A program made the translations under genes and the position numbers. DNA of 37,078 nucleotides from a virus (Duplodnaviria > Caudoviricetes), in IMG/VR virus record IMGVR_UViG_3300005589_000018, positions 1 to 37,078 of that record; one strand, given 5' to 3'. Under the pieces are notes generated by a model. The model was not told the origin of the DNA. It saw only the letters and a list, made by a program, of their open reading frames with translations, and did no database searches. This document shows, in pieces, positions 7,513 through 24,294 of the stretch; position 1 is the stretch's first letter; each line of letters begins with the position of its first letter.

Positions 7513-8120
7513 TTCGTCACCTTGAGATATTTGAACTTGTTTCCTGATCCGATCTTTTCGATTTTGCCATCGCGCCGTGCGTCTTGAAGGTGATAGCGCG
7601 CGCCAGCTTGGCTAATGCCGAACTTGTCGGCTATTTCATGCGACGTGCGTTCTACGCTGCAATACTCGACTATTTTTGCATTGATAGCTGCTCGAGCTTC
7701 CATGCGCCATTCGTTGCCGGTCTTGCGTGTGTCTCGTGATTTGTAGACGTATTCGGTCAGCTTTGTTGCCGGGTTTTGCTTTCGGTCTAGCTTGCCTTCG
7801 TCGAGCATTGCCTTTGCGACCTTGCGGACGGTTTCGACATGGAGGCCCATGAATTGCTCGATGTCTGTGGTTGTGCGCCATGTTTTGAGGCAGTAATCGA
7901 AGATTTGTTTTTTGCGCTTCTGCGCTGCGTTGCTGTCTCGTTTGTGCTGTTGCGGTGCTTTTTGTCGCTTTGTGTGTTTGAGCATGAGGCGACCGATTGC
8001 GGCCTCGTGTTTTGCGGCGGCTGTCGGGTTGCCGAAGGCGTCTAGGATGACTTGGACGTTTTGGCCTTTGTTCGGCGCGACGGTATGCGCTGCGATGCGG
8101 GGCGGTGTAGTGTGGATCAT
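7509..8120 (-). CDS. Tandem winged-helix DNA-binding protein
   Basis: Two repeated units I..YC....RT...I....G......R......DGK..+; GGAGG RBS; ATGA overlap. Confidence 0.75.
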   Translation of the reverse strand: MIHTTPPRIAAHTVAPNKGQNVQVILDAFGNPTAAAKHEAAIGRLMLKHTKRQKAPQQHKRDSNAAQKRKKQIFDYCLKTWRTTTDIEQFMGLHVETVRKVAKAMLDEGKLDRKQNPATKLTEYVYKSRDTRKTGNEWRMEARAAINAKIVEYCSVERTSHEIADKFGISQAGARYHLQDARRDGKIEKIGSGNKFKYLKVTK

Positions 8121-8617
8121 TTCAGATCCTCCATGCGGATGCTGTTGAGGATGGGCTTCCCGCCCTCTGTCTCATAGATGATGCAGTATTTATCGAGTGA
8201 TCCGCTGCGCCACGGGTTCCATCCAAATGATCCGCCCGCATACAGAGTCACCGTCTCGCGCTTAGGCTCTGGCTTGATGCGGTATGCGTATTCATCAAGC
8301 CATCCAAGGCCTTTCAGCGTCACCCAATGGTCTACATTCAAGAACTCCACACTACCGGGGCTTTCATAATGCGCCAGCAACAGCGCGCCCTTTTCTGCGT
8401 CGGTCATCTCGCCCCACGTTTTCGGGGTGTCGTCCTCGTCGGGCCACTCGGCAATGAAGTCAATCAATGTCTTGCGTTGGTCACAACACCGCCCGTCGTC
8501 ATAGCGCCAAATTTCATCGCTGCCTTTCCACGGAATGACACCTCCATCTCTCGGCCTTTCCTGCGCCACCTTCGCACCATCGCGGCGGCGGTATGCTTTG
8601 CCTTGTTCGATCTTCAT
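8117..8617 (-). CDS. Hypothetical phage protein (166 aa)
   Basis: Start MKIEQGKAY at 8617 with GAGGAG RBS and ATGA overlap. Confidence 0.75.
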   Translation of the reverse strand: MKIEQGKAYRRRDGAKVAQERPRDGGVIPWKGSDEIWRYDDGRCCDQRKTLIDFIAEWPDEDDTPKTWGEMTDAEKGALLLAHYESPGSVEFLNVDHWVTLKGLGWLDEYAYRIKPEPKRETVTLYAGGSFGWNPWRSGSLDKYCIIYETEGGKPILNSIRMEDLK

Positions 8618-8910
8618 GCCATGCTCCTCAGTTTTGGGTTGAACGCGGTCAGCACGTCTTTTTTCGGCATGGGTTTTGCCGTGCGCTGTGCGATGTAGGT
8701 GAAAGGCCGTTGCTTGTGCATGTCGCCGCGACAAGGTTCGTCCACGCGCTGGACGAGTGCGAGACCGCCGCGACCTGCAAGCCACATGAGCGCCCCGCCG
8801 TGAATGCCGGGATTGTTGCCGACGCTATAGATGATTTGTTCTCCTGGTTTCATCTGGCATAGCTGCCCGATGGCTGCGTTTTTTTCGGTGCTTAGGTGTT
8901 GTGTGGTCAT
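8614..8910 (-). CDS. Hypothetical phage protein (98 aa)
   Basis: First gene after the promoter at 8940-8985; coupled to the next gene. Confidence 0.7.
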   Translation of the reverse strand: MTTQHLSTEKNAAIGQLCQMKPGEQIIYSVGNNPGIHGGALMWLAGRGGLALVQRVDEPCRGDMHKQRPFTYIAQRTAKPMPKKDVLTAFNPKLRSMA

Positions 8911-11308: not shown

Positions 11309-11463
11309 TACGCCACCCCACGGCGCGCAACATAAAGAGCGGCGAAGCGCAGAAAATCGCCCATCGTTGAAATGCCGTGCCGCTTCATTGCCGCCTCAAT
11401 TTCTTTGCGGTCATCATCCGTAAGAGGGACCGGGGTGCGCTTGGTTTCAACTTTGGTATCCAT
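11308..11463 (-). CDS. Ribbon-helix-helix (CopG/Arc-like) regulator (51 aa)
   Basis: MDTKVETKRTPVPLTDDDRKEIEAAMKRHGISTMGDFLRFAALYVARRGVA shows a strand-helix-G-helix pattern; GAGG RBS; first gene of the left arm; not in ORF track. Confidence 0.75.
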   Translation of the reverse strand: MDTKVETKRTPVPLTDDDRKEIEAAMKRHGISTMGDFLRFAALYVARRGVA

Positions 11464-11492
11464 TGTTTTTCCTCGTGGTGCTAAATTGTGGC

Positions 11493-11524
11493 TTGACGGT
11501 ATCCCCGCGGGTGCTTAGTGTCAA
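11493..11524. promoter_or_regulatory. Overlapping divergent sigma70-type promoters
   Basis: Plus: TTGACG-17-TAGTGT (11493-11521). Minus: TTGACA-17-TACCGT (11524-11496). Confidence 0.75.
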
Positions 11525-11603
11525 CCCACGGCTTTTGCCTTTGCGGTGTTTGGAGCGTGTCGCCGCCACGCAAGGCCCAATGGGTCACAACATAGGAGAC
11601 GTT

Positions 11604-12356
11604 ATGTCTATTCTCGAACAAGCATCTGTGCCTGATTTGGGTGCGCAGATCATCACCATTTGCGGTGATGCAGGCTTGGGTAAATCCAGCCTTGCCGCAA
11701 CATTCCCAAAGCCAATCTTTATTCGCGCCGAAGATGGCGTGGCGCGCATTCCGGCGGAGTTTCGCCCGGCTGCGCTGCCCGTTGTGCGCACCGAAGAACA
11801 GCTATGGGAACAACTCAAGGCGCTCGTGCATGACGAACACGACTACAAGACAGCCGTGATTGATACCGTATCTGCCGCCGACCGGATGTTCGTGCAGTCG
11901 ATCTTGAAACAGGATGGCAAAGCACGCTCTTTGAACCAAGCCCTCGGTGGTTATGGTGCCGGGTTTTCGGCGCTGGCAGCGCGTCACCAGCAGGTGCGCA
12001 ATGCCGCCGAAATGATGCGGATCAAGCGCGGCATGAATGTCGTTTTCTTGGCCCATACCGAAGTCGGCACAATGCGCTTGCCGGATCAAGACGACTTCAG
12101 CCGCTACAGTCTGCGCATCACGCATGACAAGAGCCTGCCGCCGTATCTGGACGATGTGGACGCGGTTGGTTTTCTGCGTCAGGTCATGGCGCTCAAGGGC
12201 GACGAAGGCGAACGCAAGAAAGCTGTCAGCAGCAATGAGCGTGAATTGGTCATGCACGTCACCGCGTCGAACGTATCGAAAAACCCATACGGCATCACAG
12301 AACCTGTTGCCGTGAAACTGGGTGAAAACCCGCTTGCAGAATTTGTGAAAGGATAA
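11604..12356 (+). CDS. Sak4-like (AAA_24) ATPase, single-strand annealing protein
   Basis: GDAGLGKS Walker A, EDG, YKTAVIDT, GYGAG, FLAH motifs; AGGAG RBS before ATG 11604; upstream of SSB and exonuclease. Confidence 0.85.
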   Translation: MSILEQASVPDLGAQIITICGDAGLGKSSLAATFPKPIFIRAEDGVARIPAEFRPAALPVVRTEEQLWEQLKALVHDEHDYKTAVIDTVSAADRMFVQSILKQDGKARSLNQALGGYGAGFSALAARHQQVRNAAEMMRIKRGMNVVFLAHTEVGTMRLPDQDDFSRYSLRITHDKSLPPYLDDVDAVGFLRQVMALKGDEGERKKAVSSNERELVMHVTASNVSKNPYGITEPVAVKLGENPLAEFVKG

Positions 12357-12361
12357 GCGAA

Positions 12362-12997
12362 ATGAGTTTCTGGGATTTGAGCGACGGCCAGCAGGCCAAT
12401 CAGAACGTCGAAAAGGAATATGAGGTTCCCGGCGGCAATATGGACCCGCTGCCGAACAACTCGGACGTGCTGGCCGAGATCAAAGAGGCCAAGTGGGACA
12501 GCGCCAAGGACGCCGAGGAAAAATACATCTCGATCCAGTGGCAGGTGCAGGAGCCTGCGCAATACAAGAACCGCGTGATTTTTCAAAAGCTGTGGGTTGC
12601 GCACCTTGATCCGAATGCAAAGAGCGAGGACAAAGCGAAGGCAAAGCGCGACAAGGCCCGCAAGATGCTGGCCACGATTGACGCCAACGCCAAAGGCCGC
12701 TTGATGCAGTCAACCGACGCGCCGACCGATGATAGCCTTGCGCTTGCGCTTCAGGGCGCGCAGATGGTCATCAAGGCGATGGTCTGGGAAATGCCGGATC
12801 GTGAGCGGTATGGCGAGTTTATTCGCGGCAACTGGATTAGCGCCGTGAAGCCGAAAGGTTCGGAACTGCACATTGGCGAGGACAAGCCCAAGCCGTCCGG
12901 CGGCGGTGCTGGCGCAGGCGCAGGAGGCCAGCCGAGCGGCGGCGGGTTTGATCTTGGTGGCGACGACATTCCCTTCGCACCGGAATGGCGCGTGTGA
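12362..12997 (+). CDS. Single-stranded DNA-binding protein (DUF669-like)
   Basis: Gly-rich linker and DDIPF near the C-terminus; lies between Sak4-like and exonuclease genes. Confidence 0.8.
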   Translation: MSFWDLSDGQQANQNVEKEYEVPGGNMDPLPNNSDVLAEIKEAKWDSAKDAEEKYISIQWQVQEPAQYKNRVIFQKLWVAHLDPNAKSEDKAKAKRDKARKMLATIDANAKGRLMQSTDAPTDDSLALALQGAQMVIKAMVWEMPDRERYGEFIRGNWISAVKPKGSELHIGEDKPKPSGGGAGAGAGGQPSGGGFDLGGDDIPFAPEWRV

Positions 12998-13854
12998 TGG
13001 AACAACGCACTCCAGAATGGTTCGCGGCTCGGAAGGGCCGCGTTACCGCCAGCCTTGTAGGTGGCCTGCTAGATTGCGCCCCTTACATGAGCAAAGACGC
13101 CGCATTCCGCGCTTTGGTGCGGTCCTGCCACGGGTTGCCAAGCGAGTTTGAGGGCAACATCGCCACGGAATACGGCAATGCCAACGAGGGACTGGCGCGA
13201 TCCGTTTATGAAATGGAGACAGGAAACACGGTCGAGGATGCCGGGTTTGTCACTTGGGATAATTGGCTTGGCGCAATCCCATACGGTTATATCCGCGATG
13301 ATGGCTTGATTGAGATCAAGTGCCCTTTTGGCAAGCGCAAGGATGAAGTGCCTGAATTTGCCAGCATTGAGGATCAGCCGCATTACTATGCGCAGGTGCA
13401 AATTCAGCTTTTCGTGACGGGCCGTGAATGGTGCCATTTCTGGCAATGGGCACCGCACGGAAACAAACTGGAAACGGTCAAATATGACGGCGCGTGGGTC
13501 AATGAAAACCTGCCGACGCTTTTGGCGATCTGGCAGGACGCGCAAGCCGCTGACCCAAAAGACTATGACGGCGAGGTGCGCAAGGTCATTGATACGCCAG
13601 AGGCTGAAAAGCTGATTGCGGAATACGATGAATTGAGTGACGCAATCGACAACGCCACGGCGCGCAAGAAAGACATCATCACGCGCTTGGTTGAAATGTC
13701 CGGCGGTAAGGATGCCAAGGTTGCCGGGCGCAATCTCACTTTGGTGAAGCGCGCTGGTGCTGTCAGCTATGCCAAGGCGATCAAGGCGATTGCGCCGGAT
13801 GCGGACTTGGAGCCGTATCGTGGCAATCCTAGTGAAAGCTGGCAGGTGAATTGA
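12997..13854 (+). CDS. YqaJ/lambda-exonuclease family protein (catalytic PD reads PY)
   Basis: EQRTPEWF..R.GRVTAS, YG..NE, IEIKCP, YYAQVQ.QL motifs; TGATG overlap. Confidence 0.88.
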   Translation: MEQRTPEWFAARKGRVTASLVGGLLDCAPYMSKDAAFRALVRSCHGLPSEFEGNIATEYGNANEGLARSVYEMETGNTVEDAGFVTWDNWLGAIPYGYIRDDGLIEIKCPFGKRKDEVPEFASIEDQPHYYAQVQIQLFVTGREWCHFWQWAPHGNKLETVKYDGAWVNENLPTLLAIWQDAQAADPKDYDGEVRKVIDTPEAEKLIAEYDELSDAIDNATARKKDIITRLVEMSGGKDAKVAGRNLTLVKRAGAVSYAKAIKAIAPDADLEPYRGNPSESWQVN

Positions 13855-21075: not shown

Positions 21076-21613
21076 GACGCTGAAAGAACGGCTGGATCGG
21101 TTGAGCGAGGGCGCAAACCCGGGACCATATAGTGTTAGAAGCTACCAAAGCGGGACAACGTATCTCGAACTTGGGAAATGGCCGGGTCATTATGCATCAG
21201 ACACGGTGCCGCCGATGGGCTGGGGTGATGCTGAAATTGTGAACCGAAACATTCCATCGTCTTGGGGAGATCAGGACAGAAAGGGATATACCGCGCACTT
21301 TCTTGCTGAACTTGGCAACGCCTACCGCTCCGGCGACCTGATCCCCCGCGACGAGATCACGCCCGCAATGGCGGCGGAGTGGCAACCGATTGAGACCGCG
21401 CCGAAGGATGGGGTTGGATTTCTCGCGTTTGAGCGCATTTCAGACGATCACTACACGATTTCTGTGTGCGTTTGGGAGGACGGCGATGATGGCGATGGGC
21501 CATATATGGTTCTTTTCCACGAGGCCAAAAATATACCGGTTAACGCGTCTCACTGGAGGCCTCTACCAGACCCGTCCGCCCTCACCGCAATCAAGGAGAG
21601 CAAAGATGACTGA
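21068..21613 (+). CDS. Mosaic accessory protein (Ead/Ea22-like N-terminus, DUF551-like C-terminus)
   Basis: ANPGPY; WQPIETAPKDG...SHWRPLP. Confidence 0.7.
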   Translation: MGETLKERLDRLSEGANPGPYSVRSYQSGTTYLELGKWPGHYASDTVPPMGWGDAEIVNRNIPSSWGDQDRKGYTAHFLAELGNAYRSGDLIPRDEITPAMAAEWQPIETAPKDGVGFLAFERISDDHYTISVCVWEDGDDGDGPYMVLFHEAKNIPVNASHWRPLPDPSALTAIKESKDD

Positions 21614-22469
21614 TGATCTGGTGGAGCGGTTGCGTGGGCCAGTGCAAGATGCCGCCCATGCCTTTATAAACGACTTTTTCAACAACAAGGACACACCGAA
21701 GCCTGAAATCACGATACCTGCCAAGGAGGACAATTCCGACCTCACGCTAGTTAATGGTATCAGAGAGGCTAGTGACGCCATCGAAGCCCTGCAAGCCGAG
21801 CAGTGCGTCGAGGTGACGGCGCTTGAGTGGGGCAAGCGTATCCAAAAAGAAAGGCCGATCCGGTTCATTACCAACAGCACATGCGGACGGTATCAGGTCA
21901 CTGAATGGCTTGACGGCTCTGGATATGTGGTCTGCTTTATGGGCAGGTTTGGCAGACATGAAAGAATCGAAGCACCCACAAGTGCAGGTGGTTCTGAACC
22001 ATTGAAAGCAGCCGCCCAAGCCGATTACGAGCAACGCATCCTCTCCACCATCACCACCCGCCCCGCGTCCGAGGTCCGGGCCGAGGCACATGCTGCGGCG
22101 GTAGAGGCGGCTGCGCGATGGCTGGAAGAACGAGCGAAGATGACCAGAGAAGCTGCAGAAGCACAAAGGTCAGTATCGCCTGAAAGCGACCCGCCACTCA
22201 CCGACGAAGCGCATCAAGAAAACCTGAAGGAGGTGTTTCGGCTGAATGCATCAGCAAACCTTCTCATGGCAGACGCGCGCGTCATCAAGAACCTCCACAC
22301 CGACGCCAGCCGCGAATACCTCGCAGCCCGTGAAGAGCGGATCAAGCGGGAGGCGCGGGAAGACGTTGCACACGGACTTTTGAAAATTATCCACGACACG
22401 GAAGATGCAGACATGCTGCGCTTGGCACTTCTTGAGGCGCTGGCCCTGATCGAGAAGGAGGGGGTGTGA
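21606..22469 (+). CDS. Hypothetical accessory protein (287 aa)
   Basis: Start MTDDLVERLR with AAGGAG RBS; V..LEW and KAAAQADYEQRI modules. Confidence 0.75.
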   Translation: MTDDLVERLRGPVQDAAHAFINDFFNNKDTPKPEITIPAKEDNSDLTLVNGIREASDAIEALQAEQCVEVTALEWGKRIQKERPIRFITNSTCGRYQVTEWLDGSGYVVCFMGRFGRHERIEAPTSAGGSEPLKAAAQADYEQRILSTITTRPASEVRAEAHAAAVEAAARWLEERAKMTREAAEAQRSVSPESDPPLTDEAHQENLKEVFRLNASANLLMADARVIKNLHTDASREYLAAREERIKREAREDVAHGLLKIIHDTEDADMLRLALLEALALIEKEGV

Positions 22470-22822: not shown

Positions 22823-23147
22823 CACGACAACGGAAGCGGTTGATCGGCTGGCGAAGCACATAGCGATGACATGCGCCTGCGCTATTGGTAAGAGAGCCGA
22901 GCAACCTGTCGCTGGCACCCTACGCGCCCTCACCGCCGAGCGAGATGCCCTTGCCGCAGAGGTCAAGAGGCTGAGGGTCGGGCTTCGCATAGTCGCGGAT
23001 CAAGTGACTTCCGACAGTATCCCGCCGGAGGTCATGGCAGACATCAACGCCGATACCCCGAAAGAACAAGCGGAGTGGTGGAACATGGGATATGACGCCG
23101 CAATTCGTTGGGCGATGGCATCACTGGAAGAGGGGAAGGACGGATGA
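22815..23147 (+). CDS. Hypothetical protein (110 aa)
   Basis: Start MTDTTTEAV with AAGGA RBS; LRAL.AERD coiled coil. Confidence 0.7.
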   Translation: MTDTTTEAVDRLAKHIAMTCACAIGKRAEQPVAGTLRALTAERDALAAEVKRLRVGLRIVADQVTSDSIPPEVMADINADTPKEQAEWWNMGYDAAIRWAMASLEEGKDG

Positions 23148-23245
23148 CCGACAACGAACGCACGATCCGCTCCGATGTTATCGCGATCAAGAAGGCACTG
23201 GCCGGGGCGCGTGAGGCGCTCGGGATGAAGGAGGCAGAAGGATGA
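23144..23245 (+). CDS. Small hypothetical protein (33 aa)
   Basis: MTDNERTIRSDVIAIKKALAGAREALGMKEAEG; ATGA overlaps at both ends; AAGGA RBS. Confidence 0.6.
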   Translation: MTDNERTIRSDVIAIKKALAGAREALGMKEAEG

Positions 23246-23478
23246 CCGCATGGACGCCAGACTGGCCAGCACCAACAAAAGATGAAGTGCGCGCCGCAGG
23301 ATTTAGCGGCGACGTTACGCGCTTCCCGCTGACATGGGCGGGATATGTGCGGAGATGCCAGATGAACGGCGTTGACCCACTGAAACCACCGAACAACGCA
23401 TGGTTCTATGCTCCGAATGCTTGCGTGCAAGAGCAACTCAACGCCGCATACGAGGAAGCAAAGGAGGCGCGGGGATAG
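23242..23478 (+). CDS. Hypothetical protein (78 aa), last gene of the rightward arm
   Basis: AAGGAGG RBS; ATGA overlap. Confidence 0.7.
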   Translation: MTAWTPDWPAPTKDEVRAAGFSGDVTRFPLTWAGYVRRCQMNGVDPLKPPNNAWFYAPNACVQEQLNAAYEEAKEARG

Positions 23479-23517
23479 TTGCGCGTTGAACGGTCGCGCC
23501 CCCGTCGCCATGTGGTG

Positions 23518-23782
23518 AACTGTCAAGCAATTCTTGATAGTTGAGCGCGGAACGATTGCGCAATCTTCGTCATCGTCATGCGGTGCGCTCGACTGGGAAA
23601 TTCCCAACCCAGAAGCGGTTTCAGTATGACGCCGCGCTCATGAGGTGTGGCAGGTCGGTTTTCCTAGCATTCCGACCGAGACAGCTAGGCGATGCCTCAA
23701 CGGGACCACACCGCAAAAGAGCGGTTTGAGCGCGGCGGTCCGCACAGGCGAACTCGCGGGCCAAGCCCAATACACCGCGCTC
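23518..23782 (+). ncRNA. Candidate large structured ncRNA with pseudoknot
   Basis: At least seven stems of 5-11 bp plus a loop-downstream CCTAGC/GCTAGG pairing; G-U pairs favour the plus strand. Confidence 0.5.
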
Positions 23783-23813
23783 CCCGAGAAACTACCACAC
23801 CACCAGACGTGAG

Positions 23814-23841
23814 AAAACCCCCGCCCAATAAAGGACGGGGG
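23814..23841 (-). terminator. Rho-independent terminator after the lysis genes
   Basis: Minus strand CCCCCGTCC-TTTATT-GGGCGGGGG-TTTT. Confidence 0.7.
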
Positions 23842-23924
23842 CGAGACAGGGGCAGTGCCTCAGAGAATACGCTGTTTCGCAGAGGCCTCCTTCAAAATGA
23901 CGGACTAACGCGCCGCCGTGCCTC

Positions 23925-24125
23925 TTACGGGCGACACGTCCCGGTCATGCGGTCGTCTGTGTCGGCAATCCAGTTGCCCCAAGGCCCACCGGGAACGGTC
24001 GCAGCGTCTGGCATATCAAGCCGCGCCTCTGCGTAAGCGATGCAGCCGGGCCTACCACCGACCGTCATTGGAGCGCAGGCGGTCAGCGGGAGTGTCACCA
24101 GAAGCGCGGCCATCGCGAACCGCAT
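23925..24125 (-). CDS. o-spanin (Rz1-like lipoprotein)
   Basis: MRFAMAALLVTLPLTAC lipobox; overlaps the 3' end of the i-spanin gene. Confidence 0.8.
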   Translation of the reverse strand: MRFAMAALLVTLPLTACAPMTVGGRPGCIAYAEARLDMPDAATVPGGPWGNWIADTDDRMTGTCRP

Positions 24126-24294
24126 CGCGCCCATTCTCGATCCGCTCTTGTGTGTCTTTGAGTGCGTCATACTGCGCCCCTTTCTTGCCTTCCGACTTGC
24201 CGCGAAAATACGCCACAAGAACCGCGCCGATAGCCGATGCGATTATCGCCGCATACATCTTGATCCTGCCGGGAATTGCGAAAAGCCACGTCAT
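24052..24294 (-). CDS. i-spanin (Rz-like)
   Basis: N-terminal TM followed by a charged helix; directly after the endolysin; ATGA overlap. Confidence 0.75.
   Translation of the reverse strand: MTWLFAIPGRIKMYAAIIASAIGAVLVAYFRGKSEGKKGAQYDALKDTQERIENGRDAVRDGRASGDTPADRLRSNDGRW

Follow-up and report, generated by a model that had tools for sequence, protein, structure and literature searches.

Phages reportedly carry non-coding RNAs that blunt host defence, among them the Racr RNA anti-CRISPRs, and phage tRNA clusters are likewise said to serve in counter-defence. Type III antitoxins (ToxI, CptI, TenpI) are H-type pseudoknots of about 35-57 nt, and in rRNA operons and the early RNA of phage T7, RNase III processing stems flank fixed products. 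Phage-borne small RNAs can neutralise RNA-inhibited toxins: the pseudo-ToxI RNA of phage PhiTE blocks ToxIN (PMC3475682) and abiF RNA/RCd22 neutralises the AbiF toxin in trans (PMC12373285), both being tandem repeats of one mimic. Short conserved elements are also used as recombination points for modular shuffling by T4-type phages, whose PeSL combine a promoter and a terminator and shuffle genes (PMC2839356). The nearest published architecture is that of the UG27 ncRNA arrays (bioRxiv 10.64898/2026.09.22.753630), which are phage arrays of conserved structure and diverse sequence, with conserved motifs around a variable centre, units that are gained and lost, and some pseudoknots.

The locus reported here lies in a phage genome of 37,078 bp (the window, i.e. 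the whole stretch of DNA analysed), a complete viral record with direct terminal repeats, and belongs to a family of cassettes that shares features with these systems. In contrast to the RNase III stems of rRNA and T7, with their fixed products, it holds exchangeable cargo and shares one strand with a second stem. Like tRNA clusters and Racrs it would set phage non-coding RNAs against host defence, and true tRNAs occur in its clusters, but the majority of its units are no tRNAs, and no Rfam CRISPR repeat was matched in the 20 array loci scanned. Its long helix resembles RNase III stems (PMC1540722) in spanning about two turns with mismatches and in flanking a product for release. Unlike the tandem pseudo-ToxI and abiF mimics (PMC3475682, PMC12373285), it places unrelated inserts in a constant frame and has no ToxI match, although one cluster does hold an abiF RNA. 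PeSL shuffle genes, whereas the cassette shuffles non-coding inserts inside stems; UG27 arrays depend on a reverse transcriptase, whereas none was found in 36 records of the cassette family, which differs further in its two alternating frames, shorter units and clustered tRNAs. We found no published description of the family in the literature searched, and its arm motif was absent from six supplementary files of PMC10690425, three further files of which may hold it.

The minus strand of the window carries siphovirus-type head, connector and tail genes and the plus strand the replication genes, and the cassette (23518-23782) lies where the early and late arms converge, after the lysis genes. 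The sequencing runs containing this region are marine sediment metagenomes, of which runs X1 and X2 may be the source of the window sequence and are not independent of it. None of the runs listed as containing the region was an RNA library, which says nothing for or against expression. Elsewhere in the window, a recombination module (11463-13854, +) encodes a Sak4-like annealing protein, a single-strand binding protein and a RecE-like exonuclease, and no integrase was recognised among the ORFs scanned. Two long ORFs (21390-22469, +, and 8117-8785, -) had no PHROG or Pfam match, the second having homologues in two element-bearing phages.

The original prediction, made from the letters of this gap, described one large, geneless, pseudoknotted and possibly two-state RNA of the plus strand, not recognised as a tRNA, tmRNA, riboswitch or known ribozyme. 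Much of the description held. All 17 stem and repeat strands checked were located exactly where it had placed them, none of four ORFs tested across the gap matched PHROG, and the region 23510-23790 folded with z -3.33 on the plus strand (1 of 200 shuffles as good) and -2.29 on the minus strand (3 of 200). The H-type pseudoknot, of 6+6 bp, was rarely equalled by shuffled inserts (Table 1). ARAGORN found neither tRNA nor tmRNA in the window, and no Rfam 15 family matched there at gathering score, with just three weak matches (E 1.6-8.3) between 23300 and 24000. The idea of a single large RNA, in contrast, had to be abandoned: the region is an array of interchangeable modules that are exchanged and deleted independently, so that the undescribed structured phage RNA survives as modules without an Rfam match or a description that we could find.

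Two phages reached via the endolysin share an 18-mer with 23632-23649, and a scan of viral contigs with a 15-mer from one arm gave 82 pattern loci. Both arms were present at 37 of these, in 35 contigs besides the window, and the remaining 45 resemble chance; the use of a 15-mer from one arm as query accounts for part of the invariance of that arm, and since about 25 of the 35 contigs have four assembly prefixes in common, diversity is sampled unevenly. Whole-contig searches added units with arm insertions, including one in the cultured Octadecabacter podovirus OANV2 (MW805364, 38173-38267). Because this sole cultured carrier infects Octadecabacter, the host of the window phage is probably a member of the Rhodobacteraceae. 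The terms noncoding and intergenic are absent from the available part of the OANV2 paper (PMC9239159). The annotated hypothetical gp74 of this phage (MW805364.1, 38238-38762) overlaps both the A unit and a portion of the helix, and may be a spurious ORF call.

Contigs carry one to three units, and two frames alternate along them. The B frame is a conserved, G+C-rich, imperfect helix of about 20 bp with three mismatches, made of 18 arm positions (15 of which pair on the minus strand in the consensus) plus one to three insert pairs, around an insert of 37-62 nt; the 40 distinct B inserts fall into 32 unrelated families. Overlapping it, the A frame is an 8-bp acceptor-like stem around an insert of 36-95 nt (24 families), in which the stem measures 7-8 bp and is followed mostly by AA, with no encoded CCA. 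An A-type stem comes after 32 of 38 units (two units left out, and two of the 32 partners possibly mis-picked), and a strong partner for this second stem was present in 23/40 units versus 75/901 random windows. The frames are near-invariant while the inserts are unrelated. In the 37 units used for helix covariation (three with arm indels left out), the first B-insert pair is Watson-Crick in every case, with four pair types, and over the first three insert positions of 29 families 63 of 87 pairs are Watson-Crick, against a mean of 30.9 and a maximum of 45 in 5000 shuffles. Compensatory changes among homologues are present in the inner helix of the B units. One-base insertions match in all three interacting strands in OANV2 and in one G064 unit. 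This architecture of two frames, with covariation, independent exchange of inserts, and gain and loss at 8-nt repeats, is well supported, and we are highly confident that the loci form a family of modular non-coding RNA cassettes.

Table 1. Features of the cassette in the window (positions in the window)
Feature	Position	Strand	Description
Terminator-like hairpin, 4-U tail	23812..23850	-	follows the lysis genes and lies upstream of the cassette; minus-strand fold z -5.1; putative function
Candidate extended -10 promoter element	23789..23797	-	precedes the first base of unit A2 by 6 nt; by reading the sequence; speculative
Unit A2	23728..23782	-	8-bp acceptor-like stem 23782-23775 / 23735-23728; z -2.9
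Unit B	23632..23724	-	imperfect ~20-bp helix, 5' arm 23724-23706, 3' arm 23650-23632; 57-nt insert; z -3.4 on minus
H-type pseudoknot	23653..23689	-	two 6-bp stems, core of the B insert; 2/2000 shuffles of the 57-nt insert as good
Unit A1	23543..23639	-	8-bp acceptor-like stem 23639-23632 / 23550-23543; 81-nt insert
10-bp hairpin after A1	23518..23542		z -4.7 on plus, -2.8 on minus
143-nt block (A2+B) between 8-nt direct repeats	23632..23774		missing from close relatives

Read on the minus strand, the order in the window is terminator-like hairpin, A2 (insert of 39 nt, 23736-23774), long helix with pseudoknot, A1 and hairpin. A consensus terminator scan, which needs five T, did not call the hairpin at 23812-23850, and a sigma-70 scan found no site in 23000-24200, including the candidate -10 element; the stretch 23775-23820 is retained in relatives with two differences. 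The hairpin at 23518-23542 is not conserved in the aligned homologues L080 and L081. Arms of 14 nt, 93% complementary and 327 nt apart (23493-23506 / 23834-23847), flank the whole cassette, and a similar motif comes after a unit in G033. A degenerate 38-nt direct repeat (74%; 23474-23511 / 23536-23573, 62 nt apart) may be a decayed copy of the end of an A unit.

The long B helix has the 5' strand of A1 at its base, and conservation extends to both pairings. The conserved alternative is a local one, in which a single 8-nt strand takes part either in the long helix or in the stem downstream of it. The tandem and nested folds originally proposed do lie, together with the long-helix fold, within 3.3 kcal/mol of each other on the minus strand, but the nested fold of 240 nt is not the conserved alternative; it requires two adjacent A units, and relatives lack 23632-23774. 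The pseudoknot, which can form on either strand, is likewise present, but as a property of one swappable insert, and only 5 of the 32 insert families have one.

Several lines of sequence evidence bear on the strand. The G·U pairs in the A stems of 24 families number 12 in the minus sense versus one in the plus sense; 41 loci have only three tRNA genes between them, each at a distance of 12-89 nt from a unit and on the predicted RNA strand; the abiF RNA in L105 is likewise on this strand, some 200 nt past a unit; and a large ORF within 2.2 kb, found in 23 of 28 contigs, is on the predicted strand in 23 of 23, with TerL as the nearest large ORF downstream in 18 of them. The G·U asymmetry, the co-oriented tRNAs and abiF RNA, and a location ahead of terminase genes strongly suggest that the cassette is read from the minus strand of the window. 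Set against this are the better plus-strand z of the window region (-3.33 vs -2.29) and one helix column that is A·C on the minus but G·U on the plus strand in 14/37 units, while among the inserts neither strand is favoured (p 0.63). Transcription of both strands may occur at this convergent site. The three G-U pairs that had pointed the original prediction to the plus strand are real, but they are confined to window-specific parts, whereas the conserved family stems favour the minus strand.

Two further elements were noticed around the units. One is a recurring module in the flanks of units in L091, L109, L111, L132, L136, L159 and L162, where a pair of similar 14-nt motifs, separated by about 21 nt, immediately precedes the leader on the RNA strand and is a possible regulator site. 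In G053, a gene for an RtcB-type RNA ligase (L212, 9152-10555, -) is on the same strand as a two-unit array and about 1.4 kb upstream of it, and its product could repair or circularise cut RNAs.

The location ahead of TerL in 18 of 23 contigs, together with the conserved, mutually exclusive pairing of one 8-nt strand, would also suit inserts that act as regulatory small RNAs, or a cis leader switch, tuning expression of the late (terminase) operon. A cis switch, however, has no need of 32 unrelated inserts, and the window cassette sits behind a terminator-like hairpin and not ahead of terminase; it follows the lysis genes, and no minus-strand gene comes after it. Nor was any insert complementary beyond chance to the fetched sequence, which was phage sequence only. 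Such a regulatory role is therefore rather unlikely, though it is the best of the alternatives to the decoy model that we prefer.

Exchange of inserts between cassettes was extensive. All six multi-member A-insert families occur beside differing B inserts, and all four multi-member B-insert families beside differing A inserts. A joint 23631->23775, with 143 nt dropped, is present in a single contig from run X4 and another from run X5, the two runs belonging to two studies; eight letters at this joint fit either side, and relatives from both runs have A1 alone, without A2 and B. In run X3, 23632-23733 (102 nt) is identical while the flanks are different, and in run X4 the pseudoknot core occurs in two other contexts (two contigs); these rearranged relatives in runs X3-X5 are single contigs, some at depth 2-3. 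The insert of the window's A2 and a B-type insert in L128 are related; one insert thus occurs in both frame types. Recombination at the conserved arms would be the simplest cause of the exchange. Because four assembly prefixes cover about 25 of the 35 contigs, part of it would be shuffling within populations, and chimeric assembly might account for some insert combinations.

The cassette as a whole is accessory, since syntenic relatives identified through the helicase show hardly any gap or none at the junction (L041, L051) or one of about 120 nt (L049), and one 96%-complete syntenic relative has no cassette match. By blastn, the window region had no homologue among isolated phages or plasmids, and four insert-derived patterns found none among viral contigs, the matches of three being chance. 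A pattern search of metagenomes returned one contig, identical to the window across 6020 nt. In bacteria, the pseudoknot had no exact copy in the genome collection searched, the frame pattern gave ten matches of which none had full arms, and 0 of 301 sampled Alphaproteobacteria carried the cassette.

Exchange at both arms, deletion between the 8-nt repeats and an imperfect inverted repeat whose mismatches are fixed could also mean that the arms work as DNA, either as PeSL-like shuffling linkers or as attC-like hairpin recombination sites, with the inserts mostly passengers. Yet no genes lie within the frames, the six near-complete element-bearing genomes have no protein in common, recombinases included, the G·U pairs are strand-specific and the tRNAs co-oriented, and the B inserts, confined to 37-62 nt, are more structured than shuffles (mean z -0.75, i.e. 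mildly structured; p 0.001). We regard this account as improbable. Identity with PeSL was rejected separately (no sigma-70 site in 23000-24200, and a unit without a U tail), as was a transposon or MITE (no target duplication by eye, interior variable) and a CRISPR mini-array (arms inverted, inserts matching no fetched phage sequence).

The resemblance of the inserts to known RNAs was limited. Searched with Rfam at E<=10, the B inserts and frames in 20 array loci matched no family, antitoxins and CRISPR repeats included. Pseudoknots occur in 5/32 insert families against 1.2 expected, and a strong one is missing in 27/32. The window insert shares with type III antitoxins an H-type pseudoknot, in single copy, with no tandem repeats and no Rfam match. 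An abiF RNA (RF03085) was found in L105 (2814-2850, +) of G040 at 39.9 bits, the cut-off being 37; this was the only one of 33 records above the cut-off, it lies outside the frames, and the window has none. The G040 copy sits in a phage terminase leader, on a 5.5-kb fragment, and, with no Abi_2 match among five G040 ORFs tested, is a candidate solitary antitoxin mimic. An Abi_2 toxin gene was also absent from five genomes, G040 not among them. Among the candidates set aside were accordingly an Abi_2 toxin partner and a shared phage partner protein, neither being found in the genomes tested.

Three A units are tRNA-like, below threshold (L221 214-306, -; L227 146-220, -; L228 337-430, +), the one in L221 having two T-loop-like hairpins. 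With the three true tRNAs in the clusters, and a stem of 7-8 bp followed by A, they could be taken to mean that the A units descend from decayed tRNA genes, in a tRNA cluster that includes processing signals and has drifting remnants as its inserts. Against this, 21 of the 24 A families and all B inserts are without a tRNA match, near-invariant frames surround unrelated inserts, and one insert is present in both frame types, which leaves decay of tRNA genes an improbable origin. The hairpins might instead be templates for a UG27-like reverse transcriptase of the host or a co-infecting phage, giving short DNA hairpins. A variable central hairpin, conserved motifs in an internal loop and units gained or lost are as in UG27 (bioRxiv 10.64898/2026.09.22.753630), but the units are shorter than the 135-167 nt given there for UG27 and no UG27 protein trio was recognised. 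RVT_1 (PF00078) matched in 0 of 36 homologue records, and no reverse transcriptase was found among the window ORFs scanned, which makes a template role very improbable.

Least probable of all is the single plus-strand RNA or ribozyme of 265 nt, in two states, as first proposed, since its z of -3.33, its three plus-strand G-U pairs and possible read-through from the early arm are outweighed by modules that are exchanged and deleted independently and by family evidence for the minus strand. No ribozyme or riboswitch family was matched. Likenesses to hammerhead, HDV, pistol and riboswitch RNAs had no Rfam support, and the twister-sister ribozyme (RF02681), suggested by a loop resemblance, had no match at E<=10, although a permuted form would escape this model.

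For the exchangeable-insert cassette itself we propose the following course. The cassette would be expressed from the minus strand, either together with the late operon or by a promoter nearby. The long helix of about 20 bp would form first and then be cut by host RNase III; the cut would free the B hairpin, and the shared 8-nt strand would then close the tRNA-acceptor-like A stem. Substrates of E. coli RNase III typically span two helical turns (PMC1540722), and the B helix has about this length, which makes unit B of the window a candidate substrate; the proximal and distal boxes of such substrates are defined for E. coli. This processing step is plausible, and release of the inserts by a nuclease is somewhat more probable than not. 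Inserts would be shuffled at the conserved arms by the phage's single-strand annealing protein.

What the freed RNAs would do is a guess, namely that they would be decoys aimed at RNA-binding or RNA-cutting proteins of host defence. The guess draws on neighbours (tRNAs, abiF RNA) that are known counter-defence or antitoxin RNAs, on inserts that diversify like arms-race cargo and on the enrichment of pseudoknots, and it is weakened by the lack of any insert matching a known antitoxin in the array loci scanned, by abiF being a single case and by the lack of a host copy in the bacterial genomes searched. The decoy or antitoxin mimic named in the original prediction remains the leading guess for function. 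We hold the anti-defence role as a tentative one, somewhat short of an even chance, and the complete model of a minus-strand cassette with exchangeable inserts, cut by RNase III into decoy RNAs, is favoured at only slightly better than that, still below even. A bolder form, which we think doubtful, is a programmable RNA display, in which a universal, host-processed frame would be loaded from a shared pool of small RNA mimics (tRNA-like, antitoxin-like, pseudoknots), making a recombination-shuffled, RNA-only counter-defence library that needs no phage protein.

Phage RNA counter-defence has so far been known from a few single cases, namely pseudo-ToxI, Racrs and tRNAs. The present family is unannotated in the terminase leader of many marine phages, and the cultured pair of OANV2 and Octadecabacter carries the element, so that its transcription, processing and function are directly testable. 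If the model is true, a constant frame with dozens of exchangeable RNAs, in siphoviruses and podoviruses alike, would mean that RNA counter-defence can operate systematically, and each insert would be a lead to an RNA-sensing protein of the host.
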